Shown here one piece after another: positions 11,519 to 61,810 of a stretch of DNA of 64,000 bases. This DNA comes from an uncultured Elusimicrobiales bacterium (lineage in GTDB: Bacteria; Elusimicrobiota; Elusimicrobia; Elusimicrobiales; Elusimicrobiaceae). The notes below the pieces were generated by a model. The model was not told the DNA's origin. It did no database searches and saw only the letters and a program-made list of their open reading frames with translations. The DNA lies in NCBI GenBank assembly GCA_934667625.1, contig CAKUMH010000001.1, forward strand, positions 24,792 to 88,791, given 5' to 3'. Numbering within the stretch: the stretch's first letter is position 1; every line of letters begins with the position of its first letter. The position numbers and the translations under genes are program-made.

Positions 11519-11603
11519 GGAGAGGTGGCCGAGTGGTTTAAGGCACTAGTCTTGAAAACTGGCGTGGAGCAATCCACCGAGGGTTCGAATCCCTCCCTCT
11601 CCG
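11519..11603 (+). tRNA. tRNA-Ser (anticodon UGA), class II with a long variable arm
   Basis: ggagaggtggccgagtggtttaaggc...; anticodon loop ctTGAaa; variable arm cgtggagcaatccaccg; T-arm gggttcgaatccc. Confidence 0.85.
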
Positions 11604-11810: not shown

Positions 11811-11895
11811 TTCTGCGTTTTCGCAAAGAAAAAATTTCGCCTTACTTTTCTTTAAAGAAAAGTAAACAAAAGAACGGCAAATATAAAATAAAGTC

Positions 11896-12300
11896 ACCCT
11901 GAACTTGATTCAGGGTCTAGCGATTGGGTCGTTTGCTGTTGGCGTTATTAACGGCAAACGACGAACGGCCGAACGACACAAACGGTAGATTCTGAAACGA
12001 GTTCAGAATGACGGTGCTTTGGTTAATAACGGCAGCGGCGAGATCCTGGACTACAACACTCCAGGATGACGACCCCTTGGGCGGACCCCAGAATGACGGC
12101 GCTTTGGTTAATAACGGCAACGGCGAGATCCTGGACTACAACTCTCCAGGGTGACGACCCCTTGGGCGGACCCCAGAATGACGGTGCTTTGGTTAATAAC
12201 GGTAACAACGAGACCCTGGACTACAGCACTCCAGGGTGACGACCCCTTGGGCGGGCCCCAGGATGACGGCGCTTTGGTTCATAACGACAGCGGGTAGGAA
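11896..12300. repeat. REP-like hairpin-module cluster, including an 85-bp tandem array of at least three full copies plus a partial fourth (12004-12300)
   Basis: Unit starts at 12004, 12089, 12174 and 12259 (period 85). Each unit has a cagaatgacgg...ctttggttaataacgg spacer plus a gatcctggactacaacNctccagg(g/a)tgac hairpin; a degenerate copy and a ccctgaacttgattcaggg hairpin lie upstream. Confidence 0.8.
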
Positions 12301-12378: not shown

Positions 12379-12966
12379 CTAGTCTTGCTTGGTTACCGAG
12401 TTGGCGGTGCGATCAGCTTCGGTTTCCGCATAGGTTTCTTTGCCAGCGAAGTCAGCGCAGAACGCTTCGTCATCATTGCTCGTGCCTTTCACGCAAACGG
12501 CGGGCTGAGTGGATTCATAGCGTTTCTGGATGGTGTACGTATACTGGTTCGTACCCACGCGGGTCGCGATGACGCCATTGGTGTTACCCGTAGCAGCGTT
12601 CGTACCGATCAAGGCGATAATAAAGCCGTTCTGGCCGGCGCCGCAAGCGTCGGTAGAGCTGGCGACAGCCTCGGTAGATTCCGCTACGGCAGTAGGCTGG
12701 GTGCCTTTGGTGCAGTACACGCTGGAACCCGCAGTAGCGTTAGCCGGGGCAACGTCCAAGGCGCTCCAGGTCTTAGCATAGTGACCCGTTTTCATTTTGT
12801 AGCGCTGTTGGGCATTGACAACAGTACCAATTAACGTATCAGCTTCGGAAGCGCGGGCGCGTTCCACCGCTTTGAAGTAAGCGGGCATGGCCATGGCGGC
12901 CAAGATACCGATGATCAACACGACCACCAGTAATTCAATCAGGGTGAAACCCTTCTTATTATTCAT
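12379..12966 (-). CDS. Type IV pilin-like (prepilin) protein
   Basis: MNNKKGFTLIELLVVVLIIGILAA: a class III signal with G|F cleavage and N-methylation motif, a hydrophobic alpha1 helix, a variable Cys-containing C-terminus, and a GGAGG RBS. Confidence 0.8.
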   Translation of the reverse strand: MNNKKGFTLIELLVVVLIIGILAAMAMPAYFKAVERARASEADTLIGTVVNAQQRYKMKTGHYAKTWSALDVAPANATAGSSVYCTKGTQPTAVAESTEAVASSTDACGAGQNGFIIALIGTNAATGNTNGVIATRVGTNQYTYTIQKRYESTQPAVCVKGTSNDDEAFCADFAGKETYAETEADRTANSVTKQD

Positions 12967-13694: not shown

Positions 13695-14258
13695 TTATTC
13701 GCCGTCGTCTTCCGTCTTGGGGACCATCGGGTCCTCGGCCAGTTCCTCGGCGGTGTCTACACCCATGTAGTCAATGCACATGGCGACGTCTTCCTCGTTT
13801 TCGGCCTGCGGGACGCAGACGGTGCGCGTGTCAAAAAAGGGCCGCACAAGGCGGTAGGAATACTCCGGCTTGCCCACGCGGCGCGCCACCACAAACCAGC
13901 GGTTGGCGCCGTCTTGCTCAAACGAAACGGCAAAGCCGTTTTTGGGCGCGCCCGAAAGCATCCCGCCGCGCGTGTAAAAAATGGTGTTTTCCGCGCCGTT
14001 GGCAAAATCGTTATGCGCTTTGGCCAGGCGAACCGGAATCGGAGCCGCGTCCAGCTGGTGCCAATACGGCGTGTAGTGCTGCATTTTGAGCATAGTGCGC
14101 TCTTGCGACGAAACCATAGTGCCCATAAGCGTGTCCGCCTCTGCCATGCGCATACGCTCCATAAACTTGACATAGGTAACAAAGGCCACATACGACAAAA
14201 TAGACACAATCAGCACCACCACCAGCATTTCTATCAGCGTAAAACCCTTCTTGTTCAT
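13695..14258 (-). CDS. Type IV pilin-like (prepilin) protein
   Basis: MNKKGFTLIEMLVVVLIVSIL from the ATG with a GGAGAA RBS (the ORF track begins 4 codons earlier at TTG). Confidence 0.8.
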   Translation of the reverse strand: MNKKGFTLIEMLVVVLIVSILSYVAFVTYVKFMERMRMAEADTLMGTMVSSQERTMLKMQHYTPYWHQLDAAPIPVRLAKAHNDFANGAENTIFYTRGGMLSGAPKNGFAVSFEQDGANRWFVVARRVGKPEYSYRLVRPFFDTRTVCVPQAENEEDVAMCIDYMGVDTAEELAEDPMVPKTEDDGE

Positions 14259-21938: not shown

Positions 21939-23306
21939 TTACCTGAGTTTGAGGGACAGATCGTTCAAATCCGCCAGTTCCAACAGGGTCATTTCCTTTA
22001 GTTTCTGCTTTTCGCCCTTGGTCACCGCGGCGGCATAGGCTTTTTTGAACCCGAGCCGCTGGGCTTCTTCCAACCGACGGTCAATAAGCGGCACCTTGGC
22101 TACTTGGCCCAAAATGCCTACCTCCGCCATAAACACACTGTCGGGCGCGATGGGGATTTCTTTGCATGAGCTGATGACCGCCGCACAGACGGCTAAATCC
22201 AGCGCGGGATCCTTGAGCTTTACGCCCCCCGCCAAACTGACAAAAATGTCCTTGTTATCCAACGACAGACCAATGTGCTTTTCCAGCGCGGCAAACAACA
22301 TCAGGCACCGATTTAAATCCACCCCCGTAGCCACACGGCGCGGAAAAGGATAGCGCGTGGGGGACACCAGCGCCTGTACTTCGGTTAAAATCGGGCGGGA
22401 ACCCTCCAGCGCCAGGGAATACGCGCGGCCCTTTAGCGCGCGGTCGCGCGAAGTTTGGGCAAAATACTCGCTGGCGTTTTCCACCGACTCCAATCCGTGG
22501 GCCGTCATTTTAAAGAGGCCGATTTCGCCGGTGGAACCAAAGCGGTTCTTGTGCGGGCGCAAGAGACGCAGGACATTGTCTTTTTCCGTATCAAAATACA
22601 ACACGCAGTCCACCATGTGCTCCAAAATTTTGGGGCCGGCCAGTTCGCCGTCTTTGGTGACGTGCCCCAGCACAAAAGTGATAATGCCCTTGGGCTTGCA
22701 CAGGCGCACCAGTTCGCTGGTGCATTCGCGCACCTGCGCCACGGTGCCGGCCGAGGAGGTAAATTCCGGGTGATAGACGGTTTGGATAGAGTCCAAAATC
22801 AGCACATCGGGGTTGACCTGTTCCACGGACTCAACGATTTTTTGGATATCCGTTTCGCAATGCAAAAAGATATTTTCCCCTTTGACGTTAAGGCGTTGGG
22901 CGCGGCCCGAAATTTGGCCGATGCTTTCCTCGCCCGAAATGTAGAGCACCTTAAGCGTTTTGGAAAGTTCCGCCGCCACCTGCAACATTAAGGTAGACTT
23001 ACCGATCCCCGGTGCGCCGGCCAGCAGCGTCAGCTGCCCCTTGACCAGCCCCCCGCCGAGCAGGCGGTCAAACTCGGGAATGTGTGTTTCAATGCGGGGT
23101 TCCTTGACGGCTTTGCTTTCGGAAAGTTTGACGATTTCTGACGAAAAATCCGTAAAACTGCGGGTGCGCTGGGAAGGCCTTTTGCTTTCTTGCTGTTTGA
23201 CCTCTTCCACCAACGTATTCCACTCCCCACATTCCGGGCATTTGCCGGCCCATTTAGGGGATTCGTATCCGCATTTTTGGCACACGAAAACCGTTTTAAA
23301 TTTCAT
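21939..23306 (-). CDS. radA: DNA repair protein RadA/Sms
   Basis: CxxC...CxxC zinc finger at the N-terminus; RecA-like Walker A GAPGIGKSTL; KNRFG motif; Lon-like C-terminal domain. Confidence 0.9.
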   Translation of the reverse strand: MKFKTVFVCQKCGYESPKWAGKCPECGEWNTLVEEVKQQESKRPSQRTRSFTDFSSEIVKLSESKAVKEPRIETHIPEFDRLLGGGLVKGQLTLLAGAPGIGKSTLMLQVAAELSKTLKVLYISGEESIGQISGRAQRLNVKGENIFLHCETDIQKIVESVEQVNPDVLILDSIQTVYHPEFTSSAGTVAQVRECTSELVRLCKPKGIITFVLGHVTKDGELAGPKILEHMVDCVLYFDTEKDNVLRLLRPHKNRFGSTGEIGLFKMTAHGLESVENASEYFAQTSRDRALKGRAYSLALEGSRPILTEVQALVSPTRYPFPRRVATGVDLNRCLMLFAALEKHIGLSLDNKDIFVSLAGGVKLKDPALDLAVCAAVISSCKEIPIAPDSVFMAEVGILGQVAKVPLIDRRLEEAQRLGFKKAYAAAVTKGEKQKLKEMTLLELADLNDLSLKLR

Positions 23307-26185: not shown

Positions 26186-27294
26186 TATTCTTTATAAATC
26201 CTCGGTACGCGCGGCATGAGCAGCGTGCACAGCTCGTAATCAATCGTGCCGGCCTGTTGCGCCAGTTCGGCGAAGGTGATTTCCTCGTCGCCTTGGCGGC
26301 CGACGGCTACGGCTTCGTCCCCTACGCACACGGGGCCGGCGTTTGTGATATCCACCATGAGCATATCCATGGTAATGTTGCCCAAGATCGGGCAGCGTTT
26401 GCCACGGATAAGCACAGAGGCCTTGTTGGAAAGAGCGCGAAGGTAGCCGTCCCCATACCCCAAGGGCAAGGTGGCGACCTTCATATTTTGGGACGCAATA
26501 AAACTGCGGTTGTAGCTGACGCTAAACCCGGCGGGGAGATCTTTGACGTATACCACGCGGGTTTTGAGCGATAAGATCGGCTCAAAGCCCTTTTCCAGCC
26601 CAAAAGCGCTGTGACCCGTGCGAACCATATCGTAATGGACATCCGGGCGGGCCGTAATGGCCGCGGAAGCCGCCACATGACAATGGTTTACGTGAATGCC
26701 GTGGAGCTGAATGTTGGTAAGCGTGTCGCGGTAGTAGCCGATTTGCTCTTCGGTAAAGTCCGGGTCCGTCTCCACGCTGGACAGGTGGGTAAAAAACCCG
26801 TCTAAAATAACAAAGGGATTTTTAGCCAAAAACTCAATTACGCTAAAAACGTTTCCGCGCCGCGTGCCGATGCGGCCCATGCCCGTGTCCTGCTTGACGT
26901 GGCAAAGAGCCTTTTTGCCCAACTTTTCGGCAATTTGACAGACGGCCTTGGCGGCATCCATACTGGCAATGGTGATGGCAATATCGTTTTTAACAGCGTA
27001 CTCAAAGGCCTCAAACGGATAAATGCTGCCCAGCACCAAAATCGGCAGGGTTACGCCCGCCTGCCGCAGCTGGAGCGCCTCTTCCACCGATGCGGCGCCA
27101 AAGCAATCGCTTAGTTTGTTTTTTTCCAAAAACAAACCCAAGGGCACCGCGCCGTGACCATAGGCGTTGGCCTTGAGCACGGTGAGCACCTGCACACCGG
27201 GGCCGGCCTGCTCGTGCACTTTGTGCATATTGCGGGCCAATTTTTTTAAATCTACTTCGGCAACCGTTGGGCGCAAAATAGGCATCATACTCAC
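26185..27294 (-). CDS. alr: Alanine racemase
   Basis: PLP-binding VLKANAYGHG; 369 aa; the GTG start overlaps the dnaB stop (alternative ATG 6 nt downstream). Confidence 0.85.
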   Translation of the reverse strand: MSMMPILRPTVAEVDLKKLARNMHKVHEQAGPGVQVLTVLKANAYGHGAVPLGLFLEKNKLSDCFGAASVEEALQLRQAGVTLPILVLGSIYPFEAFEYAVKNDIAITIASMDAAKAVCQIAEKLGKKALCHVKQDTGMGRIGTRRGNVFSVIEFLAKNPFVILDGFFTHLSSVETDPDFTEEQIGYYRDTLTNIQLHGIHVNHCHVAASAAITARPDVHYDMVRTGHSAFGLEKGFEPILSLKTRVVYVKDLPAGFSVSYNRSFIASQNMKVATLPLGYGDGYLRALSNKASVLIRGKRCPILGNITMDMLMVDITNAGPVCVGDEAVAVGRQGDEEITFAELAQQAGTIDYELCTLLMPRVPRIYKE

Positions 27295-28709
27295 TCCGGA
27301 AGGGCCATGGTGGTGTTGCCACCGGCCTCTTGGGCCGCCTCCATGTGCTCCGGCGCCGGGTTGGTGAAGAGAGCGTATTCGCCAAAGAAGGCCAAATCAA
27401 TATCGCCCACGGGGCCGTTGCGCTGTTTGGCAATAATCAGCGTGGCCTTGTTTTTGAGCGATTCGTCGTCGCGCTTGTAGTAGGCCTCGCGGTGGATGAG
27501 GGCAACCACGTCGGCATCCTGCTCAATAGAGCCGGATTCGCGCAAGTCGGAAAGCTGCGGTTTGTTGTCTTGGCGGCTTTTGTCCTCGTTTTTGCGGCTA
27601 AGCTGTGAAAGTGCCAGCACCGGCACGTTGAGCGTGCGGGCCAAATCCTTTAACATACGGGAAATTTCGGACACTTCCTGCTGGCGGCTTTCCGTGCGGC
27701 GCTCCCCGCCGCGGATGAGCTGCAGATAGTCAATGACGATCAGCCCCAGTTCCTTGCCTTGCTTTTTTAAATCGCTGGCCAGGCGGCGGGCGCGCATGCG
27801 CAGTTCCGTAATGGAAATGCCGGAGGTATCGTCAATATACATGGGTGCGGCAGCCAAGCGGCCGAGCTCGCGCGTTAAATCGGACCATTTGCTCTGCTCA
27901 TAATACCCTGTGCGCAATTTATAAATTTCCACCATGGCGGCGGCACCGAGCATACGTTCAAAAATAATGTGTTTGCCCATTTCCAGCGAAAAGAACGCCA
28001 CCGGGAACCCGCATTCCACGCACGCGTGGTGCGCAATGTTAAGCGCCAGGGCCGTTTTACCTTGGCTGGGGCGGGCGCCCAAGATGATTAAATCGGACTT
28101 TCTAAGACCGCCTGTTTTGCGGTCAAACTCATCCAAGCCCGTCGGAACGCCTTGAATGGCACTTTTGTTGCGCACGGCGTTTTCCAGCATGGCGATGACT
28201 TCCGGCGCTAAGTCTTTGGAGGATACGAAGCCCGTCAGCTTTTGTTTTTGGCTGAGCTTGTAAATTTGGTCGGCGGCTTCGTCAATTAAAATTTGCGGGT
28301 CGTCGTCCTCTTCTTTGTAACAGCGCTGGACCAGCCCCGTGGCGGTGCGGATTAAATCGCGCACGACGTATTTTTTGTACACGATTTCCGCATAGTGCTT
28401 GACGTGCGCCGCGGTGGACACCTTGTCCACCAGCTGCGTTAAGTACAGTTCCCCCCCCAGCTGGGTGAGCAGGTTGTTACGTTTGAGCTCCTCGGTGAGG
28501 GTGATAATATCAATGGCTTGGCTGCGGTCGGCCAGGGCTTTCATGGCGGCGAAAATCTTTTGGTGCGCTTCTTTATAAAAATGCTCCGGCTTTAAAATTT
28601 CCAACGCCTGGTCCACAGCGTCGGCCTCCAACAGCATAGAGCCCAACACGGCCATTTCCGCGTCAATTGCTTGCGGAGGGATACGTTCTTCCAATAAATT
28701 GCTCGCCAT
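27291..28709 (-). CDS. dnaB: Replicative DNA helicase DnaB
   Basis: 472 aa; Walker A GARPSQGKT; DnaB-family N- and C-terminal domain motifs (IHHACVECG..., SQLSRKNE...). Confidence 0.9.
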   Translation of the reverse strand: MASNLLEERIPPQAIDAEMAVLGSMLLEADAVDQALEILKPEHFYKEAHQKIFAAMKALADRSQAIDIITLTEELKRNNLLTQLGGELYLTQLVDKVSTAAHVKHYAEIVYKKYVVRDLIRTATGLVQRCYKEEDDDPQILIDEAADQIYKLSQKQKLTGFVSSKDLAPEVIAMLENAVRNKSAIQGVPTGLDEFDRKTGGLRKSDLIILGARPSQGKTALALNIAHHACVECGFPVAFFSLEMGKHIIFERMLGAAAMVEIYKLRTGYYEQSKWSDLTRELGRLAAAPMYIDDTSGISITELRMRARRLASDLKKQGKELGLIVIDYLQLIRGGERRTESRQQEVSEISRMLKDLARTLNVPVLALSQLSRKNEDKSRQDNKPQLSDLRESGSIEQDADVVALIHREAYYKRDDESLKNKATLIIAKQRNGPVGDIDLAFFGEYALFTNPAPEHMEAAQEAGGNTTMALPE

Positions 28710-28865: not shown

Positions 28866-28915
28866 GAGAAGGTTGCCCTTTTGCGCGGTTTTTAAAAGGC
28901 GGGCTAAACGGAAAA
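28866..28915. repeat. Copy 1 of a conserved ~45-bp intergenic element (gccctttgcg..gtttttaaaaggcgg..taaacggaa)
   Basis: Near-identical to 39078-39122. Confidence 0.5.
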
Positions 28916-29007
28916 GGCCGATGCGCTTTTTGCCCGTTGCCTGGATATGTTTTCCAAAGCACAGCGGAATTTGCTAGAGTATAGTATCTTTTATGAGGAG
29001 GCCCCGA

Positions 29008-31485: not shown

Positions 31486-31932
31486 TTAAAAAGGCACGTC
31501 GTCTTCCATTACGTCGGTAGTGGGGACGTCGTCCTTGGCGGCCGGGGCGGGGGCATCGGTGTGATATCCGCCGGCGGCGTTGGATTCCAGTATTTGTACT
31601 CTGCGGGCCGTTACCTGCAAAGATTTGCGGGTTTGCCCGGTTGTTTTGTCGGTGTATTCGCTGCTGGTGAGGCGGCCTTCCACTTGAATGGGGGTCCCTT
31701 TTTTCACCCGGTCTTTACACCGTTCGGCGGCAGCACCCCAAACCACTACGGGAACAAACACAGTGTCATCCTTCCACTCGTTTGTGGTAGCATCTAAATA
31801 TCTGCGGTTGACCGCAATATCACAACGGCACACTGCCTGGCCCTTTTGCGTAAACGCCACATTCGGGTCACGTGTTAACCGTCCGACTAGAAGTACAAGA
31901 TTTTGTTCCGGTAATTTGATTTGTGCTGGCAT
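31486..31932 (-). CDS. ssb: Single-stranded DNA-binding protein
   Basis: OB-fold NLVLLVGRLTRDP; acidic C-terminal tip DDVPF; start at an internal ATG that avoids overlap with rpsF. Confidence 0.85.
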   Translation of the reverse strand: MPAQIKLPEQNLVLLVGRLTRDPNVAFTQKGQAVCRCDIAVNRRYLDATTNEWKDDTVFVPVVVWGAAAERCKDRVKKGTPIQVEGRLTSSEYTDKTTGQTRKSLQVTARRVQILESNAAGGYHTDAPAPAAKDDVPTTDVMEDDVPF

Positions 31933-32381: not shown

Positions 32382-32906
32382 TTATTTAAAGCAATAGGTT
32401 TCGTAGGAGCTGTTGGCGCGACAGGGGGCGGTGGTGTTTGTTTCCAGGCGGCACACCCGTTGGGGTACGCTTCCCCGCGAATGATAGGCAAAGCACAGCC
32501 GTGCATTGGAGGCGAATTTAATCTCTAATTCAGGCACATCGGTGGAGGAATAATCCATACATTGCACCGTTCCTATCACATAGTCACGCAACATGCAAAC
32601 GCCATTTTTGCCAAAAGTAATTTGATTAAAGGTACCATAACCTTCGGCATTGACGGGAGTGGCCGGGCCAAAATTTAAATCTAACGCGCTGAAATCCGTA
32701 GTGTATTGACCGTTGGCCATAAAGTATACTTGTTCCGCTTTGGCAATAGCAGTGCCCATTTCCACCAACTGCTGGTAGCGCGCACGGGCGACTGCGGTTT
32801 GGTACTGGGGCAGGGCCACTGCGGCAAGAATGCCGATGATAAGGACGACGACAAGAAGTTCAATAAGGGTGAAACCGCCTAAACGGCGCGTAGTAACGTT
32901 TTTCAT
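32382..32906 (-). CDS. Type IV pilin-like (prepilin) protein
   Basis: MKNVTTRRLGG|FTLIELLVVVLIIGILAA; AGGAAGG RBS; the 16-codon upstream extension in the ORF track (TTG start) is the palindromic 5' UTR, not coding. Confidence 0.8.
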   Translation of the reverse strand: MKNVTTRRLGGFTLIELLVVVLIIGILAAVALPQYQTAVARARYQQLVEMGTAIAKAEQVYFMANGQYTTDFSALDLNFGPATPVNAEGYGTFNQITFGKNGVCMLRDYVIGTVQCMDYSSTDVPELEIKFASNARLCFAYHSRGSVPQRVCRLETNTTAPCRANSSYETYCFK

Positions 32907-33005
32907 CACAACCTTCCTTTTTGATAAATTTTTCGCATACTCAAAATTTATCAAAAAAAAAAACGATTACAACCCTTTTATATTTTGCCGGCCCAAAAAC
33001 AGCTG
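32880..33005 (-). promoter_or_regulatory. Conserved pilin 5' module (promoter region, palindromic UTR and leader-peptide codons), copy 1 of 3
   Basis: ~130 bp near-identical to 38690-38815 and 60530-60665; contains the inverted repeat ttgataaatttt...aaaatttatcaa. Confidence 0.5.
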
Positions 33006-33014
33006 TTCAACAAG

Positions 33015-33200
33015 GAAGAGATGCTGGACTAAAACACTCCAGCATGACCTTTGTTTGATGACGGACACGACACAAAGGGTAGATCCTGAATCAAGTTCAG
33101 GATGACCACCTTTGTTAGATAACAACGAGATCCTGGACTACAACCTTCCAGGATGACGGCTCTTTTACGGGCCGCCAGTTCAGCATAACGACCTTTGTTT
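33015..33200. repeat. REP-like hairpin-module cluster
   Basis: gatgctggactaaaacactccagcatgac, ggtagatcctgaatcaagttcaggatgac, gagatcctggactacaaccttccaggatgacgg and ccgccagttcagcataacgac. Confidence 0.6.
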
Positions 33201-33221
33201 TATAACGACAACGACTATTAT

Positions 33222-33449
33222 CTATTGGCGTTTGAGGAAAATTTTGGCAGGGCTGGTGGCGCCCTTGATGAGCGAAAGTTTGTTTTCGGGTATGGACAAC
33301 TGCTCGGCCAGCACGGTGCGGACGGCCTCGTTGGCGCGGCCCTGTTCCGCGGGCGCTTTTACCCACACTTCAAAAGTATCGGGAGATTTTTGGACGAGTT
33401 TGTTCTTCTTTTCCCCCGCGTGCACTTTTACCTTAATGTAACTTTCCAT
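33222..33449 (-). CDS. DUF167/YggU-family small protein
   Basis: 75 aa; pattern VKVHAGEKKNKL...FEVWVKAPAEQGRANEAV...LIKGATSPAKIF matches the UPF0235 family. Confidence 0.6.
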   Translation of the reverse strand: MESYIKVKVHAGEKKNKLVQKSPDTFEVWVKAPAEQGRANEAVRTVLAEQLSIPENKLSLIKGATSPAKIFLKRQ

Positions 33450-38224: not shown

Positions 38225-38716
38225 CTAGCGCAGGCGGTACACATTGTCGCCCCAAGCAGAAAGCTGGCCTGTCTTTTCCCCCAAGGAAGCACAAACCTTT
38301 TCCCCGGTTTTGCCGGCTTCGGCTTGGGAAGGATAACACAATTGATAGGTGGGGTAAAAATCAATAGAAAAGCCCGGGCCTTGCCAAAATACAGCGGGGC
38401 CTGAATTGGGGTTGTGCAGGTCCCCCACCGGGGTGTTGTAAATAATGGTTTGGTCTTGTTCGGTACGGGACGTGTAGGGGAAATCAATATCCAGCGTGTC
38501 CAAATCGGCGGTATACTGGCCGTTGGCCATATAATAGACCTGCTTGGCATTTACAATGCTTTTAAGCACGGGCAACACGCGCGCCACGCGGGACTTGCGC
38601 ACGGCTACTTCGTATTGGGGCAGCGCAATGGCGGCCAAAATGCCGATGATGAGCACAACAACTAACAACTCAATAAGCGTAAAACCGCCTAAACGGCGCG
38701 TAGTAACGTTTTTCAT
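38225..38716 (-). CDS. Type IV pilin-like (prepilin) protein
   Basis: MKNVTTRRLGG|FTLIELLVVVLIIGILAA; first ~35 residues identical to the 32382 paralog, C-terminus divergent. Confidence 0.8.
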   Translation of the reverse strand: MKNVTTRRLGGFTLIELLVVVLIIGILAAIALPQYEVAVRKSRVARVLPVLKSIVNAKQVYYMANGQYTADLDTLDIDFPYTSRTEQDQTIIYNTPVGDLHNPNSGPAVFWQGPGFSIDFYPTYQLCYPSQAEAGKTGEKVCASLGEKTGQLSAWGDNVYRLR

Positions 38717-38815
38717 GACGACCTTCCTTTTTGATAAATTTTGAGCATACTCAAAATTTATCAAAAAAAAAACGATTACAACCCTTTTATATTTCCCCGG
38801 CCCAAAAACGGCTTT
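38690..38815 (-). promoter_or_regulatory. Conserved pilin 5' module, copy 2 of 3, with a near-perfect 34-bp palindrome
   Basis: ttgataaattttgagcatactcaaaatttatcaa (15-bp perfect arms) lies directly upstream of RBS AAAGGAAGG and the ATG. Confidence 0.5.
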
Positions 38816-38819
38816 TCAA

Positions 38820-39050
38820 CAAGGAAGAGAGGCTGGAACCCTGCGGGCCGCTAGACACTCCTGCATGGCCCTTATTTAATAAGGGACATAACGACCCAAA
38901 AGGTAGATTCTGAAACAAGTTCAGAATGACCTCATAATGAAACGGCAAGATCCTGGACTACAACACTCCAGGATGACAGCAAAACAACAACAGCAAACAA
39001 CAAAACAACACATGCGGTAGATGCTGAATCAAGTTCAGCATGACCTTTTT
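38820..39050. repeat. REP-like hairpin-module cluster
   Basis: ggtagattctgaaacaagttcagaatgac, aagatcctggactacaacactccaggatgac and gcggtagatgctgaatcaagttcagcatgac, plus a degenerate ggaaccctgcgggccgc module. Confidence 0.6.
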
Positions 39051-39077
39051 ATTTTTTCATTATGGTTGGTTGTTTTT

Positions 39078-39122
39078 GTCGCCCTTTGCGTTGTTTTTAA
39101 AAGGCGGTTTAAACGGAATAGT
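39078..39122. repeat. Copy 2 of the conserved ~45-bp intergenic element
   Basis: tcgccctttgcgttgtttttaaaaggcggtttaaacggaata, compared with ttgcccttttgcgcggtttttaaaaggcgggctaaacggaaaa at 28866. Confidence 0.5.
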
Positions 39123-43317: not shown

Positions 43318-43414
43318 ATTTGGGTTTCTCCAAAATACAATATAGGTATATGATACCAATTTTTGAGTTTGTGCGCATAGAGCAACAAAAAGACAACGAC
43401 CACAACACAAGCGG

Positions 43415-43505
43415 CAGCTGGTGAAACAAGTTCAGCATGACGGGCTATTTTAACAACGGCGAGCTCCTGGAACCCCGCGGGCCGCCAGGCACTCCAGGAT
43501 GACGG
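43415..43505. repeat. Solitary REP-like module pair in a non-pilin context
   Basis: ggtgaaacaagttcagcatgacggg plus gagctcctggaaccccgcgggccgccaggcactccaggatgacggcc. Confidence 0.55.
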
Positions 43506-43601
43506 CCTTCATTTAACAGCAGGAAAAGCAACATAAATGCCCCAGCTAATAGCGACAGCACGAAAAAACCTAAAAAGCTTTTTATAAGGTATAATAGCTT
43601 T

Positions 43602-43937
43602 ATGAATTGTATTTTTTGCGGCATTGCCGACGGCTCTGTAAAAAGCCAGCTTGTGTATGAAGATGATGAGGTGGTAGCCTTTAAGGATTTAAACCCGCAG
43701 GCGCCCACGCATCTGTTGATTATCCCGCGCAAACACATTGCGCGCCTGAGCGAAGCGGACGAAAAGGACGCGCTCCTACTAGGCAAAATTTTGCTGGTGG
43801 CCCAAAAATTGGCCAAGCAGTTAAACCTAAAGGATTTCCGCCTGATTACCAACAACGGCAAAGGTGCCGGACAGAGTGTGGACCATTTGCATTTCCACCT
43901 GATGGCAGGCAGACGTTTTTTGTGGCCGGCGGGGTGA
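43602..43937 (+). CDS. HIT-family hydrolase (HinT-like)
   Basis: Histidine triad VDHLHFHLM; N-terminal CIFCGIA zinc-binding motif. Confidence 0.85.
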   Translation: MNCIFCGIADGSVKSQLVYEDDEVVAFKDLNPQAPTHLLIIPRKHIARLSEADEKDALLLGKILLVAQKLAKQLNLKDFRLITNNGKGAGQSVDHLHFHLMAGRRFLWPAG

Positions 43938-50062: not shown

Positions 50063-52159
50063 ATGCCGGATACTACACAAATCCAATACCTAAAGGGCAT
50101 CGGCCCCGCCAAAGCCAAACTGTTTGAAAAGCTGGAAATTCAAACGGTGGAGGACCTGCTACATTATTATCCCCGCACTTACCAGGACCGCCGGCTGGGC
50201 GTACCGCCCAATGAGTACAATTCCGAGGCTCTTGTGGTATTTAAAGGCCGGGTGCTGCGCACGCAGGAAATACCGGCCCGCAGTGTACTGATTTTTAAAG
50301 CGTTTTTAGAGGATGAAAAAGGGAACCAGGTGGAATGTACGTGGTTTAAAAAACGCATGTACCGCGGGTTCCGGTTTGACCCGTTCGGCGCGCTTAAAAA
50401 AGATTTTAAAATAAACCACGAAGTGTGGGTGATTGGCAAGCGGGAAAATAAAAATAATTTTTTTGGCAATAAAATTACCGTGGACGAACAATACCCCGAA
50501 GAGGACGCGCTTTGCAAACTGCACGCCGGACGGCTCACCCCCATTTACGCCCTGACGGAAGGACTGACCAATAAGCAGTTTAGGCAATTTGTCTACGAGG
50601 CATTGCAAACACCTTCTTTGGCGCGGGAACCGGAAATTTTGCCACCGGCACTGCTTTGCAAACGCAAACTTTTAAGCGCCCCGCAGGCGCTGAAGGCCAT
50701 TCATTTCCCCAATTCGCTGGCCGAATTGGAGAGCGCTCGCACCCGCCTGGCATACGAGGAATTTTTGCTCCTGGCCACGGCCTGGGGCATTAAACGCACG
50801 CAAACTAAAATTTTATCTAAAGATTATTCCTACGAAATCAAAAAAACGCTTTTAACGCCCTTCCGCGAGCAGCTCGGTTTTGCCTTTACCAACAGCCAAA
50901 AAAAAGTGATTAACGAAATCTTCCGCGATTTGTGCTCGCCACGCCCGATGAACCGCCTGCTGCAGGGGGATGTGGGTTCCGGCAAGACGGTGGTGGCGCT
51001 GTGCGCCATGCTGCTGGCGGTGGAAAACGGCTATCAGGCGGCCCTGATGGCTCCGACCGAAATTTTGGCAGAACAGCACTTTTTGACGTTTAAACGCATT
51101 TTGCAAGGGCTAAAGGTAAACTTGGCGGTGCTGACCTCCAGCACCAAGTCGGCCGCCAAAAAGAGGATTTTAAAGGAACTGGCTGAGGGGAAAATTGATA
51201 TTTTGGTCGGCACGCATTCCGTGATTCAGGATGACGTAAAATTTCACAATTTGCGTCTAGCAGTGATTGACGAACAGCACCGCTTTGGCGTGAAACAACG
51301 CAGCAAACTCAAGGAAAAAACCGCTAAGCTGGACTTGCTGACCATGACGGCCACCCCCATTCCGCGGACGCTCGCGCTGGCGTTTTACGGCGATTTGGAA
51401 GTGTCCACCTTAAGTGAACTTCCGCCCGGCAGGCAGCCGATACAGACGGAGAGCGCCACCTCCAAACTGGCTTACGACCGCGTGCGGGAAGAAGTGCAAA
51501 AAGGACGGCAGGCGTACATTGTTTTCCCGCTCATTGAAGAGAGCGAAAAGGTGTCTGCCAAGGCGGTTACGGCAGAATTTGAAAAACTGCAAAAAGTGTT
51601 TCCGCAGTTTCGGCTGGCGGTACTGCACGGGCAAATGACGCAGACGGAAAAAGAAAATGTGATGGCGGATTTTGCCGCGCATAAAACCGATATTTTGGTG
51701 GCTACCCCTGTAATTGAAGTGGGCATTGACGTCAAAAACGCAACGGTTATGGTCATTGAAAACGCCGAACGGTTCGGGCTGGCCAGTTTGCACCAGTTGC
51801 GCGGACGCGTGGGCCGCGGTGAACACGAAAGTTACTGTATTTTGGTGCCCCAGCACGCGGGTAGCGTGGCCAAGGAACGGGTGGATATTATTTGCGCCAC
51901 GCGCGACGGGTTTAAAATCGGCGAGCGGGATATGCAGCTGCGCGGCCCCGGTGAAATTTTGGGCACGCGCCAAAGCGGGGAACTGGAATTTAAGGCCGGG
52001 GATATTTTTCAGGACCGAGACATTTTATATCAGGCCATTGAGGACCGGAACGAACTTTTAACGCAGGACCCCGCACTGACCAAGCCGGAACATTTGCTCT
52101 TCCGCCAAAAGTTGGCACAGCTGTACCAAAAGAATTGGCACCTGATTGATTTGAGCTGA
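50063..52159 (+). CDS. recG: ATP-dependent DNA helicase RecG
   Basis: Wedge/OB domain, helicase motif I GDVGSGKT and motif II DEQHRFG; 698 aa. Confidence 0.9.
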   Translation: MPDTTQIQYLKGIGPAKAKLFEKLEIQTVEDLLHYYPRTYQDRRLGVPPNEYNSEALVVFKGRVLRTQEIPARSVLIFKAFLEDEKGNQVECTWFKKRMYRGFRFDPFGALKKDFKINHEVWVIGKRENKNNFFGNKITVDEQYPEEDALCKLHAGRLTPIYALTEGLTNKQFRQFVYEALQTPSLAREPEILPPALLCKRKLLSAPQALKAIHFPNSLAELESARTRLAYEEFLLLATAWGIKRTQTKILSKDYSYEIKKTLLTPFREQLGFAFTNSQKKVINEIFRDLCSPRPMNRLLQGDVGSGKTVVALCAMLLAVENGYQAALMAPTEILAEQHFLTFKRILQGLKVNLAVLTSSTKSAAKKRILKELAEGKIDILVGTHSVIQDDVKFHNLRLAVIDEQHRFGVKQRSKLKEKTAKLDLLTMTATPIPRTLALAFYGDLEVSTLSELPPGRQPIQTESATSKLAYDRVREEVQKGRQAYIVFPLIEESEKVSAKAVTAEFEKLQKVFPQFRLAVLHGQMTQTEKENVMADFAAHKTDILVATPVIEVGIDVKNATVMVIENAERFGLASLHQLRGRVGRGEHESYCILVPQHAGSVAKERVDIICATRDGFKIGERDMQLRGPGEILGTRQSGELEFKAGDIFQDRDILYQAIEDRNELLTQDPALTKPEHLLFRQKLAQLYQKNWHLIDLS

Positions 52160-58623: not shown

Positions 58624-59694
58624 ATGGACGCAAACAAACAAAAAGCGCTGGATTTGGCCCTCGGTCAAATTGAAAAAGCGTTTGGCAAAGAAGCCATTTG
58701 CAAGTTAGGCGGAGGCGGCGTAAAAAACGTGGAAGCCATTCCCACGGGGGCGCTGTCCTTGGATTTGGCCTTAGGCGTGGGCGGGCTTCCCCGCGGGCGC
58801 GTGATTGAAATTTACGGCCCGGAAGCCGGCGGCAAGACCACCTTGTCTTTACACGTGGCGGCCCAAACCCAAAAAATGGGCGGCACGGTGGCGTTTATTG
58901 ACGCCGAACACGCGTTGGACCCTGTGTATGCCGCCAATTTGGGCGTAAACGTGGACGAGCTTTTGGTATCGCAGCCCGATTCGGGCGAACAGGCCTTGGA
59001 AATTGCCGAAAAGCTGGTGCGCTCGGGCGCGATTGATTTGATTGTGGTGGACTCCGTGGCGGCGCTGGTGCCGAAAGCGGAAATTGAAGGCGAAATGGGC
59101 GACGCGCACGTGGGCTTGCAGGCCAGACTGATGAGCCAGGCCTTGCGCAAGCTGACCAGTCTTCTCAACAAAACCAAAACGAGCATTATTTTTATTAACC
59201 AGCTTCGCCAAAAAATCGGCGTGATGTTTGGCAACCCGGAAACCACTCCCGGCGGGCTGGCCCTTAAATTTTACGCGTCCGTGCGTATTGATGTGCGCCG
59301 CATAGAAAACCTCAAAAAAGGCGACGAGGTTATCGGCACGCGCGTGCGCGCCAAAGTAACCAAAAACAAGGTGGCGCCGCCGTACCGCCAGGCCGAATTT
59401 ACCATGATTTTGGGTCACGGTATTTCGCGTGAGGCCTGCATTATTGACAAAGCGGTGGAAGCGGGTTTTGTGGAAAAGAGCGGCAGCTGGTACCTGTACG
59501 GGGAAGAAAAGCTGGGCCAAGGGGCAGACAACGCCCGCCAGTACCTCAAAGACAACCCCGAACTGGCCGCTGAAATTGAGGATAAACTTTATGTAAAGTA
59601 TCTCGGCCACCACTACAACGGCAAAAAGGCCGACGCGGCGGAACAGGCAAAAGCCGAACCCGCCAAAGAACCTAAAAAGGTTACAAAGAAATAG
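58624..59694 (+). CDS. recA: Recombinase RecA
   Basis: GPEAGGKTT Walker A; L1/L2 loops; canonical RecA throughout. Confidence 0.95.
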
Positions 59695-59750: not shown

Positions 59751-60215
59751 CTAACAACAGGCACAATAGTCATCATCAGTACTGTTTTTTACATTAAGTA
59801 ATTTGGCATAATCCATTGAATGTTTTACTCCACTGTCTATACAACTTTCATCATAGTTAACTACAAATTCATCCGAATCTAAATAGCATAGACAGACTCC
59901 TTCTTTCTTATACTGAGCAGAGGGAATACTGTTTGACTGGGAACTCGCATAATAATAGAAATCTTTTGTTTCTACAAATCCCTCCTCCTTACTACCAGCA
60001 ATAGAAATGTCCAATTCGTCCATAAAACAAATTTCGTCGCCACCTTTTGCCAAGCGACATACTCTATCTGCTTGAGCAATAGTTTTTAAATTACTCATCG
60101 CTTCTGTAAAACGGGACTTCGTAACCGCCTTGGTATATTGCGGCAACGCCACCGCAGACAATATACCAATAATGAGTACAACAACTAACAATTCTATTAA
60201 TGTAAATCCTTTCAT
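59751..60215 (-). CDS. Type IV pilin-like (prepilin) protein, AT-rich and apparently foreign
   Basis: MKGFTLIELLVVVLIIGILSAVALPQ; AGGAGA RBS; coding sequence visibly lower in GC than its neighbours; C-terminal Cys pairs. Confidence 0.8.
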   Translation of the reverse strand: MKGFTLIELLVVVLIIGILSAVALPQYTKAVTKSRFTEAMSNLKTIAQADRVCRLAKGGDEICFMDELDISIAGSKEEGFVETKDFYYYASSQSNSIPSAQYKKEGVCLCYLDSDEFVVNYDESCIDSGVKHSMDYAKLLNVKNSTDDDYCACC

Positions 60216-60339
60216 TTTTTTCTCCTTATTAATGCCTTTATATTTGAGCAAAACGGCCTTTTATGCGCGTTTTTATACGACAGATACATCCGGGTATGAC
60301 CACCGCGATTTATCAAAATCTTAACAAAAAACGATATTT

Positions 60340-60480
60340 TTTGCCGTCTCCCTGAACTTGGTTCAGGGTCCATCGGAACTTTGACTCTCTTGCGCTGGAT
60401 GCTGAAACAAGTTCAGCATGACGGCGTGTTTTGATAACAGCGAGATCCTGGACTACAACCTTCCAGGATGACGGCTCTTT
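60340..60480. repeat. REP-like hairpin-module cluster between the truncated pilin 5' module and the AT-rich pilin gene
   Basis: ccctgaacttggttcaggg, ggatgctgaaacaagttcagcatgacgg and gagatcctggactacaaccttccaggatgacgg. Confidence 0.6.
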
Positions 60481-60533
60481 TGTGGACCGCCAAACTTGCC
60501 AAGATGACGACTTAAAAAGAGCATGCGTAAAGC

Positions 60534-60565
60534 TGCCTAAACGGCGCGTAGTAACGTTTTTCATA
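60534..60565 (-). pseudogene. Truncated pilin gene: conserved leader codons MKNVTTRRLG only, then REP-like repeats
   Basis: Codons 1-10 are identical to the pilins at 32382 and 38225; the reading frame then runs directly into repeat modules; the conserved upstream module is intact (60563-60665). Confidence 0.5.
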
Positions 60566-60665
60566 ACGACCTTCCTTTTTGATAAATTTTTCGCATACTC
60601 AAAATTTATCAAAAAAAAAACGATTACAACCCTTTTATATTTTGCCGGCCCAAAAAATGGTACAA
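60563..60665 (-). promoter_or_regulatory. Conserved pilin 5' module, copy 3 of 3
   Basis: ccttcctttttgataaatttttcgcatactcaaaatttatcaaaaaaaaaacgattacaacccttttatattttgccggcccaaaaa is near-identical to copies 1 and 2. Confidence 0.5.
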
Positions 60666-60699
60666 AAAGGAAAGGCAACGGCCACAACAAATAAGGAAA

Positions 60700-60870
60700 A
60701 GATCCTGGACTAAAACTCTCCAGAATGACCTTATTTAATAACAACAACGACAAAACGACACAAAGGGTAGATGCTGAAACAAGTTCAGCATGACGGTCTA
60801 TTTTAACCACGGCAAGCCCCTGGGACCCTGCGGGCCGCCAGTTCAGCATGACGACACCTTGTTTAGTTGC
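60700..60870. repeat. REP-like hairpin-module cluster
   Basis: aagatcctggactaaaactctccagaatgac and ggtagatgctgaaacaagttcagcatgacgg, plus a degenerate ggaccctgcgggccgccagttcagcatgacg. Confidence 0.6.
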
Positions 60871-60922
60871 GACAATAACAAGCGGGGCCAAACGGGAACG
60901 CGTAAAAATACTACAATAAGGT

Positions 60923-61810
60923 ATGAACGATTTTTTGCTAGAGGATTTTAAAAATCACCTCACGTTTGAGCGGCAACTATCCAAAAACACCGTGCTTGCG
61001 TACGGAGCGGACACGGAAAGTTTTTTGGAGTATTGCGCCGCCAACGAGCTCCCGCCCGAAAAAGCCACCCCGGAGTTTTTGGACCAATACAACTACCAAC
61101 TCCGCGTCGTGGAAGGGCTCCAACCCGCGAGCGTTTTCCGCAAATTGGAAGCCGTCAAAAGCTTTTACAAGTTTCTGCTGGTGGAGGAGAAAATTCAGGA
61201 TGACCCCACCCGTTTTTTAAAATCGCCCAAACTTTCGCAAAAAATTCCCACCCAACTCACCCGCGAGGAAATGGACCGGCTGCTTTCCTATCCGGCGGAA
61301 AAATTTGACGAAATCCGCACCGTGGCCATTATAGAACTCTTATACGCGGCGGGTCTGCGCGTCAGCGAGCTGATCAACCTGCGGTTGGAAAACGTCAACA
61401 CCGAGGAGGGCTGGGTGTTGGCCTTCGGCAAAGGCGGCAAGCAGCGTTTTGTGCCCATTCATCCGCAAGCTTGCGCGCGCATCAAGGCCTATTTGGACGT
61501 GCGCGAGGCGCATTTTGCCGCCAAAAATGTGGGCTCTGAAGTGTTTTTAAACAAAAACGGCAAAAAAATCAGCCGCGTTTGCGTATGGAAAGACCTGGCC
61601 GCCCTCGGGCGCAAGGCCAACATTTCGCAACCGCTTCATCCGCACCTGTTCCGCCACACCTTTGCCTCGCACTTATTGCAGGGCGGGGCGGACCTGCGCA
61701 GCTTGCAGGAAATGCTGGGACACGCCAATTTGACCACCACCCAAATTTACACGCATTTGGATGTGGGCGACCTAAAAAACAAACACAAAAAATTCCACCC
61801 GCGGGGCTAA
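60923..61810 (+). CDS. Tyrosine site-specific recombinase XerC/XerD family
   Basis: C-terminal catalytic domain HPHLFRHTFASHLLQGGADLRSLQEMLGHANLTTTQIYTHL (R..HxxR..Y); 295 aa. Confidence 0.85.
   Translation: MNDFLLEDFKNHLTFERQLSKNTVLAYGADTESFLEYCAANELPPEKATPEFLDQYNYQLRVVEGLQPASVFRKLEAVKSFYKFLLVEEKIQDDPTRFLKSPKLSQKIPTQLTREEMDRLLSYPAEKFDEIRTVAIIELLYAAGLRVSELINLRLENVNTEEGWVLAFGKGGKQRFVPIHPQACARIKAYLDVREAHFAAKNVGSEVFLNKNGKKISRVCVWKDLAALGRKANISQPLHPHLFRHTFASHLLQGGADLRSLQEMLGHANLTTTQIYTHLDVGDLKNKHKKFHPRG

Follow-up and report, generated by a model that had tools for sequence, protein, structure and literature searches.

Repetitive extragenic palindromic sequences (REPs) of the CGTC class are defined by an unpaired terminal CGTC, TGTC or CCTC tag, a stem of 8-9 bp that opens with an A-T and a T-A pair, a loop of 4-5 nt and a short tail; exceptions with other loop lengths have been mentioned, and no transposase is associated with them (Di Nocera, De Gregorio, Rocco 2013, BMC Genomics 14:522, PMC3733652). 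They were reported from five phyla and include the Neisseria repeat dRS3 (CGTC-1) as well as the RPE-4 and RPE-6 members of Rickettsia (PMC3733652). In Neisseria meningitidis, the 28-nt oriented dRS3 (NTS, CGTCATTCCCGCGMAVGCGGGAATCYRG) is bound as a single-stranded DNA (ssDNA) hairpin by SsnA, a small single-domain GIY-YIG protein (Chenal 2025, PMC11893778). SsnA cuts upstream of the tag, on one strand only, and cuts neither double-stranded DNA (dsDNA) nor RNA; binding needs the C just after the palindrome, cutting needs the three nucleotides before it, and donor DNA bearing the NTS transforms ~5-fold better in an ssnA knockout (PMC11893778). Ssn-related motifs (SRM) lie close to 71% of ssn homologs, in an SRM-ssn-SRM layout resembling that of an insertion sequence (IS) (PMC11893778). 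The hairpin arrays called NIME were stated as not seen outside Neisseria (Bentley 2007, PMC1797815). Here we analyse a 64,000-nt stretch of an uncultured Elusimicrobiales bacterium (contig CAKUMH010000001.1, positions 24,792 to 88,791; hereafter the window), which carries arrays of two hairpin modules, A and B, mostly beside type IV pilin-like genes. We consider it likely that these modules are CGTC-tagged hairpin repeats (Ssn-related motifs) of the same kind as dRS3/NTS, and that they serve as sites for an Ssn of this lineage similar to the GIY-YIG protein P0004 described below.

The initial annotation had described a REP-like dispersed family of two hairpin modules, both ending in ATGAC, at six loci of the window. 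This description held: all six loci contain modules, ATGAC terminates both of them, and the family is real, extragenic and also present outside the window. Allowing up to 3 mismatches, we found 7 copies of module A and 6 of module B, every copy on the + strand; the chance expectation for both was 0 (100 dinucleotide shuffles of the window). The two could be merged into one pattern, AGAT-N-CTGRA-loop(5 or 9)-TYCAG-N'-ATGAC, with 11 exact matches, all on +, and a structure-based scan of the window returned 15 clean modules on the same strand. Once degenerate types C and D, read by eye, are counted, the window totals ~24 modules in six arrays, an estimated density of ~0.37 per kb. Arrays 1 and 5 are headed by an inverted copy, the first found by the structure scan (11893-11916) and the second read by eye (60345-60372). 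Alignment across the six loci showed a recurring composite unit made of a leader (AACGACACAAAGG), hairpin A, a spacer of ~22 nt and hairpin B, often closed by a third, degenerate hairpin. Loops measure 5 nt in module A, 9 nt in module B and 21 nt in the D-type. The degenerate variants containing CCCTGCGGGCCGCC, also proposed initially, do exist and proved to be B-type stems with a 21-nt structured loop.

Both modules share the frame AG-AT-stem-loop-stem-AT-GAC, which reads (C/T)GTC-AT-stem-loop-stem-AT-C on the opposite strand. G at -1 and a GAC behind the stem are common to all 15 clean modules, 14 have A at -2, and 13 have an 8-bp stem with AT at its start and AT at its end. Stems and loops differ among them while the flanking frame positions stay fixed. 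The base after GAC is G in 9 modules (CGTC), C in 5 (GGTC) and A in one (TGTC). With modules defined by flanks and loop only, 98.8-99.5% of stem cells were paired, against 0.85 for shuffled arms, and double compensatory changes were observed at three stem positions. Folded as ssDNA, the hairpins reach -7.4 to -8.4 kcal/mol (z about -4.5 to -4.9). We rejected a coding interpretation of module A (reverse strand, V-I/M-L-N-L-F-Q...), as the N/N' change is non-synonymous yet compensatory and some loops create stop codons. Rfam gave only tRNAs and chance-level matches, over the whole window at the gathering threshold and over 38780-39100 at E up to 10, and a full-text literature search matched the exact hairpin sequence in no paper.

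We then scanned 596 Gb with the unified pattern (one genome per species; the taxonomic spread is a lower bound) and found module A in at least 120 genome stretches from many phyla. The hosts among the matches listed include Bacteroidota (Pedobacter, Lutibacter), Treponema, Gastranaerophilales, Patescibacteria, Elusimicrobiota, Rickettsia and Ignavibacteria, besides others. By our own arithmetic ~90 chance matches are estimated in 596 Gb; most matches are nevertheless real, because the free pair N/N' is complementary in 153 of the 160 foreign copies among those listed. In these same 160 copies the loops are limited to a few types and the tag is TGTC in 76 and CGTC in 66; their loci carry further stems in frame, including ATTCCCGC...GCGGGAAT-GAC, which is of the Neisseria dRS3 type. 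Only 13% of elements lie within long open reading frames (ORFs), against an ORF coverage of 82% (genome stretches listed). Module B was found in metagenomes on 65 stretches (544 kb, 257 modules in 99 clusters), eight of them on a single 153-kb contig.

By tag, stem, extragenic spread and want of an associated transposase, these features would place the modules in the CGTC-tagged REP superfamily: they share with it the unpaired (C/T)GTC tag, the 8-bp stem opening with A-T and T-A, the short tail, the high copy number and the occurrence in several phyla. The 4-5 nt loop fits module A; modules B and D, with 9 and 21 nt, fall outside that range. Other differences are that Elusimicrobiota were not previously listed, that five window copies have GGTC in place of CGTC/TGTC, that the tail is CTA/CTC in place of CCA, and that the window has head-to-tail arrays whereas head-to-tail dimers were called negligible (PMC3733652). 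Module A is probably family CGTC-2.

The likeness to Neisseria extends to the frame CGTCAT-palindrome-ATC, to hairpin arrays with short semi-conserved spacers (PMC1797815, PMC11893778), to their position beside surface-protein and pilin loci and to their strain-variable length. The stem differs (NCTGAA or CCTGGA here, TCCCGCG in dRS3), as do the loops and the phylum, and spacers are ~20-60 bp here versus 50-150 bp in NIME. Likewise the dRS3 consensus ATTCCC-N8-GGGAAT, bounding RS units of 50-150 bp, does not fit the window: the likeness is in architecture and behaviour, not in sequence. Several hundred dRS3 in about 2.2 Mb were reportedly counted by Parkhill in 2000, which by estimate is a density similar to that of the window. 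The modules are thus a known kind of repeat (CGTC-tagged REP, dRS3/NTS-like, Ssn-related motif), newly documented in a gut Elusimicrobiota lineage.

Both SsnA determinants are fixed in the window: read on the other strand, all 15 clean modules have the C after the palindrome and GTC before it. Small GIY-YIG ORFs occur in five of the 120 listed hairpin loci, at 29-63 bp from a hairpin in L070 and L072, and in three module-B stretches (L155, L185 and L187) the gene for a 94-aa GIY-YIG protein has inverted B-type dimers ~180 bp away. P0004 (MCI5820177.1; 94 aa, single-domain, Pfam GIY-YIG E=1.7e-15) is 79% identical to the protein of these three stretches and is annotated 'GIY-YIG nuclease family protein [Elusimicrobia bacterium]'. 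P0004 and the window's strains come from the same gut cohorts (Hadza, MERR22-1), and most contigs with P0004 are short and broken. Y5, Y16 and E63 of P0004 match the catalytic Y6, Y17 and E64 of SsnA at a constant offset, so that the spacing of catalytic residues is that of SsnA; a PDB sequence search with P0004 returned no relative. P0004 is 52% identical to a hairpin-adjacent ORF of Lutibacter, and module A and a ~94-aa nuclease are in this way co-conserved between phyla as distant as Elusimicrobiota and Bacteroidota. More distant homologs in Patescibacteria (P0110) and Alphaproteobacteria also have hairpins of the same frame on their flanks.

As in the described Ssn/SRM systems (cd10448, GIY-YIG_unchar_3; Chenal 2025, PMC11893778), this small single-domain GIY-YIG gene is bracketed by oriented hairpins that also occur dispersed elsewhere in the genome. 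An inverted B-type dimer lies upstream of P0004 in every contig reaching that far. Downstream, a second dimer is present in L200, L201, L202 and L208 and only degenerate modules in L203, L205 and L207, the other contigs ending too soon. The arrays around P0004 use the window's own variants: gaagagATGCTGGActaaaacctTCCAGCATGAC is comparable to the copy at 33019, the leader is the same, and cggtagATTCTGAAacaagTTCAGAATGAC, located 2.2 kb from P0004 in L203 and L204, is identical to the window copy at 38902. P0004 very probably belongs to the same metagenome-assembled genome (MAG) as the window's ETF-alpha, judging from the shared accession series; in that series the exact ETF-alpha of the window (MCI5820250.1) and a member of the 90%-identity cluster of its RecG (MCI5820259.1) are nine steps apart, which agrees exactly with the window gene order. 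Candidatus Avelusimicrobium names are borne by members of the ETF-alpha cluster, in keeping with a place of the organism in Elusimicrobiota. The identical 94-aa gene occurs with its hairpin dimers in at least three genomic contexts (L200-L209, mostly contigs <2 kb), a behaviour typical of a multi-copy or mobile unit. One copy (right flank of L207) adjoins an apparent 5S rRNA gene, recognised by eye (no Rfam confirmation).

A simple model of how such modules would work follows from SsnA. Each module of the window - strand, (C/G)GTC-AT-(6-nt arm)-loop-(6-nt arm)-AT-C-T, would fold into an 8-bp hairpin once that strand is single-stranded, be it in transforming DNA, in the lagging-strand template or in conjugative or phage ssDNA. 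By analogy with the N. meningitidis enzyme, the 94-aa single-domain P0004-like Ssn would bind the hairpin together with the C after it, and then cut the single strand a few nucleotides from the GTC tag, on its 5′ side; neither the opposite strand nor dsDNA or RNA would be a substrate. Cutting at the hairpins would in turn let arrays placed around genes fragment homologous ssDNA and change recombination at the loci they flank, which in the window are chiefly type IV pilin-like genes. The analogy predicts binding and cleavage by P0004, the position of the cut and an effect on recombination or transformation, the role of Ssn/SRM in transformation control having been shown only for N. meningitidis.

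Several observations weigh against this model. The window has no ssn gene, and neither have ~25 kb of further scaffold; two profiles detected no Ssn-like ORF in the window or the strain contigs. The assignment of P0004 to the same genome is drawn from accession numbering, hairpin identity and a 5.8-kb MAG contig. Among the three distant homologs, that of Sulfurihydrogenibium has no hairpin within 1.5 kb. The published SRM pattern HGTCWYN(0-2)YYVSBRHN(0-5)WNVSBRGN(0-2)RNCYNB gave 0 matches on both window strands, because the A/T-containing arms (CTGAA, CTGGA) violate its S/B/V positions; since the pattern demands G+C-rich arms, the modules lie outside the experimentally tested motif space. Finally, the strict head-to-tail co-orientation in the window contrasts with the inverted neighbours that dominate elsewhere (108 vs 50 in module-B metagenome loci, 57/70 in module-A genome loci).

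We next considered the genes beside the arrays. That modules mostly flank pilin-like genes, as noted initially, is correct within the window: all four pilin loci have an array (p ~3e-4 by simulation) and only the array at 43.4 kb has no pilin neighbour. Part of this adjacency goes back to the copying of pilin 5′ regions along with the first module: three loci share a duplicated block made up of the 5′ end of a pilin, its promoter and the first module (families D2, D8). A restriction to pilin loci was, in contrast, not supported in the 544 kb of related metagenome DNA, where a pilin-like gene adjoins 11 of the 49 intergenic regions that bear modules, compared with 26 of all 265 intergenic regions (Fisher 2x2 11,15 / 38,201; odds ratio (OR) 3.9, p=0.003). 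The pilin association is therefore an enrichment and not a restriction. In the strain comparison, no gene of its region is more divergent than the pilin gene at 32.4 kb (mean 96.3% vs 99-100% for its neighbours), and that at 59.8 kb is absent or replaced in some strains; such divergent pilin genes recall the NIME-adjacent genes of Neisseria, although the effect is modest.

A bolder version of the Ssn model can be drawn from the occurrence of the P0004 unit in at least three contexts, the arrays at all four pilin loci, the OR of 3.9 and a related Elusimicrobiota contig of 406 kb (L210), where the ssn-like P0007 (3001-3384) lies between two pilin-like genes and is surrounded by hairpins of ATTCCCGA type in the same frame. 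The SRM-ssn-SRM unit would be a (semi-)autonomous mobile element driven by its GIY-YIG ssDNA nuclease, and orphan hairpins would have been recruited, independently of Neisseria, into arrays controlling ssDNA-dependent recombination specifically at type IV pilin loci. We regard this as speculative and rather unlikely. If true, the mobile unit would be a new class of IS-like element, and arrays controlling recombination at pilin loci would point to natural competence and pilin variation in gut Elusimicrobiota.

Comparison between strains confirmed the array polymorphism looked for, at locus 2, locus 3 and loci 5/6. Over the stretches compared, a 340-kb scaffold from a gut metagenome matches the window at 100% identity, and in many strains with flanking genes ~98-100% identical the arrays hold 0-5 modules. 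Locus 3 has alleles of 1, 3 or 5 modules, and module A at 39016..39045 is the only one of its modules common to 10/10 strains. Two flanking haplotypes switch exactly after the ...ATGAC of this last hairpin, and L131 resembles a crossover at GAC. Locus 2 has alleles of 0, 2 or 3 modules, the empty and filled alleles differing by the segment between two direct copies of TCCAGGATGA, and loci 5 and 6 jointly hold 2-4 modules. In two strains (L128 and L134) a solitary module B sits at another site near locus 3, at window position ~39236, where 47 nt replace 9 nt. Short-read assemblies frequently break at arrays. Arrays are thus gained and lost from strain to strain, and the junctions fall at the ATGAC edge or between direct 3′-arm copies; recombination or slippage between co-oriented modules is the probable source of new copies, with IS-like movement of the SRM-ssn-SRM unit as a further possibility. 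In L125, L130 and L133 the first module A of locus 3 is a hybrid hairpin with an uncompensated G.A pair (5′ arm ATGCTGAA, 3′ arm TTCAGAAT), due to either a point mutation or an in-loop crossover between two hairpin variants.

These junctions raise the question of whether the modules are recombinase or integration sites, a view that is compatible with the Ssn model and that we hold to be unlikely. In Neisseria, filamentous phages integrate at dRS3 by way of a phage transposase; here, haplotype switches and crossovers coincide exactly with the ATGAC edge, array 6 is 70 bp upstream of a gene for a XerC/D-like tyrosine recombinase (60923-61810, +), and a truncated pilin fragment abuts an array. 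However, the xer-like gene keeps a conserved, housekeeping-type gene order and stays put while arrays vary, no IS110-type gene is annotated in the window and no prophage junction was seen at modules, and recombination between 10-bp direct repeats accounts for the junctions just as well.

Similarly, the modules could act in RNA, as terminators, 3′-end stabilisers, processing sites or regulators in the 5′ untranslated region (UTR) of pilin genes. Their hairpins are stable, the window modules are co-oriented with adjoining - strand genes and would be transcribed in one sense by read-through, and many REPs were suggested to act as RNA (Di Nocera et al., PMC3733652). Against this, divergent promoter regions hold three of five window sites, and one is situated past an intrinsic-terminator-like hairpin; the hairpins have no U-tract behind them, Rfam had no match for them, and SsnA does not bind RNA (PMC11893778). 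In the 544 kb of related DNA, orientation relative to transcription was unbiased (46 sense vs 41 antisense) and there was no preference for an intergenic type or for 3′ ends, convergent or tandem, which favours a role at the DNA level. An RNA-level function therefore has little chance of being the explanation.

Classical GTAG REPs and REP doublets (REPINs), in which GTAG hairpins are non-autonomous transposons copied on ssDNA by a single-copy REP-associated tyrosine transposase (RAYT; IS200/IS605-like, Y1 HUH), were the system to which the modules had been tied initially. Like the bacterial interspersed mosaic elements (BIMEs) of Escherichia coli and the REPINs of Pseudomonas, the modules are short, clustered, extragenic hairpins of ssDNA type with an oriented tetranucleotide tag and presence/absence polymorphism, tied to a single-copy gene for an ssDNA-acting enzyme itself flanked by repeats. 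GTAG does stand directly before the stem in 5 of the 7 window copies of module A, as claimed; it never precedes module B, and among the matches listed it is missing from 158 of 160 module-A copies elsewhere, only 2 having GT ahead of AGAT. In this lineage GTAG reads as the complement of the tail, not as a feature of the family. The window repeats do not appear to be classical GTAG/RAYT REPs, because the conserved oriented signature is the (C/T)GTC-AT...AT-C of the other strand and GTAG is rare elsewhere. The enzyme would also differ (GIY-YIG, not HUH Y1), and REPIN doublets are not the usual arrangement in the window. No Y1 or IS110 transposase, and no RAYT, is annotated among the window genes (no search with a Y1_Tnp model was made of the remaining genome or of the 544 kb of related DNA). 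All-against-all clustering of 1534 ORFs from the 120 loci listed gave no recurrent transposase, only housekeeping families, and none is known from the CGTC literature (PMC3733652). The solitary module B at a new site in two strains, which might have indicated transposition, replaces 9 nt by 47 nt and is no clean insertion. Copying by a RAYT is accordingly very improbable.

Passive local duplication of functionless modules along with pilin 5′ regions, suggested by the three loci with a common duplicated first module, is already contradicted by the distribution: module A is conserved with compensatory changes across many phyla, module B is spread over 65 metagenome stretches mostly away from pilin genes, and array 4 has no pilin neighbour.

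The classification is thus corrected from RAYT-type REPs to the CGTC/SRM class, with a site-specific ssDNA nuclease as candidate partner. Strain-variable, NIME-like arrays beside pilin genes, once held peculiar to Neisseria, also occur in gut Elusimicrobiota (Candidatus Avelusimicrobium-like). As the modules fall outside the published SRM pattern, the true number of such systems is probably higher than current surveys show. Modules A, B and D together with P0004 are new candidate nuclease/site pairs for ssDNA tools.

Table 1. Hairpin arrays and pilin-like genes of the window. For arrays, the strand given is the one carrying the CGTC form.
Feature	Coordinates	Strand	Composition and setting
Array 1	11893..12268	-	Inverted module 11893-11916 (CGTC form on +), then co-oriented modules: A 11984-12013; three B + C pairs forming an 85-bp tandem repeat x3.4 (12004-12293). 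Between tRNA-Ser (11519-11603, +) and 3′ end of pilin gene 12379-12966 (-)
Array 2	33019..33192	-	B' 33019-33048 (loop CTAAAACAC), A 33078-33107, B 33127-33159. Between 3′ end of PF02594-family gene (33222-33449, -) and promoter of pilin 32382-32906 (-)
Array 2, last module	~33160-33192		Degenerate C-type, end CATAACGAC
Array 3, first module	38826..38870	-	Degenerate D-type: B-type stem, long CCCTGCGGGCCGC loop
Array 3, extra hairpin	38865..38892	-	ATGGCCCTTAT-tta-ATAAGGGACAT then AAC-GAC; unrelated stem, same ...AT-(A/G)AC frame
Array 3, module A	38902..38931	-	GGTAG-ATTCTGAA-acaag-TTCAGAAT-GACC
Array 3, module B	38947..38979	-	AAG-ATCCTGGA-ctacaacac-TCCAGGAT-GACAG; 8-bp stem, 9-nt loop
Array 3, module A	39016..39045	-	GGTAG-ATGCTGAA-tcaag-TTCAGCAT-GACC
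Array 4	43413..43505	-	Degenerate A 43413-43442; B-type stem with 21-nt loop 43464-43503. Divergent region between acyl-CoA dehydrogenase (start 43317, -) and HIT gene (43602-43937, +); no adjoining pilin gene
Array 5	60345..60511	-	Inverted degenerate copy 60345-60372 (CGTC form on +), A 60394-60423, B 60442-60474. Upstream of pilin 59751-60215 (-)
Array 5, last module	to 60511		C-type ending CAAGATGACGAC
Array 6	60699..60855	-	B' 60699-60731, A 60766-60795, D-type ~60806-60855
Pilin-like gene beside array 3	38225..38716	-	Type IV, N_methyl motif
Other pilin-like genes	12379-12966, 13695-14258, 32382-32906, 59751-60215	-	
Truncated pilin 5′ fragment	60525..60564	-	~13 codons, MKNVTTRRLGSFT...; promoter/5′-UTR copy to ~60650; between arrays 5 and 6

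In array 3, the first module has AGAG replacing AGAT and ATGGC replacing ATGAC, and lies directly upstream of a pilin promoter copy. The first module A of this array reads GGTC-AT-TCTGAA-cttgt-TTCAGA-AT-CTACC on the - strand. The pilin fragment is cut off right beside the ...GATGACGAC end of array 5, suggesting that a module-associated deletion produced it. The - strand ORFs 43445-43861, 60313-60891 and 33115-33366 that overlap arrays were rejected as spurious; strain annotations put the real genes elsewhere, namely the HIT gene on + and the PF02594-family gene in another frame.

The duplicated pilin 5′ regions each hold a near-perfect palindrome of 34 bp (TTGATAAATTTT...AAAATTTATCAA; 32921-32954, 38731-38764 and 60579-60612), placed after the promoter region and ahead of the ribosome-binding site; as an operator or a 5′-UTR hairpin, it could control pilin expression. 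The pilin-like proteins encoded at 12379-12966 and 38225-38716 have weak matches (E=3e-4 and 3.5e-3, under the curated cut-off) to ComP_DUS, the family of the Neisseria pilin that acts as receptor for DNA uptake sequences. Genes of DNA metabolism are found among the arrays and pilins (58624-59694, 60923-61810, 31486-31932, 27291-28709, 21939-23306 and 50063-52159): recA is directly beside pilin 59751-60215, ssb is two genes from pilin 32382-32906, and dnaB, radA and recG are in the window. This may be coincidence.

Module-A hairpins were also present in 112 viral-contig stretches (L234-L345). Several viral contigs (e.g. L266/L255, L296/L288 and L263/L282) carry 6-9 copies strictly on one strand, and an Ssn-like GIY-YIG protein is encoded in only one viral stretch (L343). 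Finally, a separate 40-nt repeat, CCYTTTGCG...TTTTTAAAAGGCGG...TAAACGGAA, is found at 28877-28916 and 39082-39121 (85% identical), the copy at 39082 falling within the haplotype-variable segment beside array 3.

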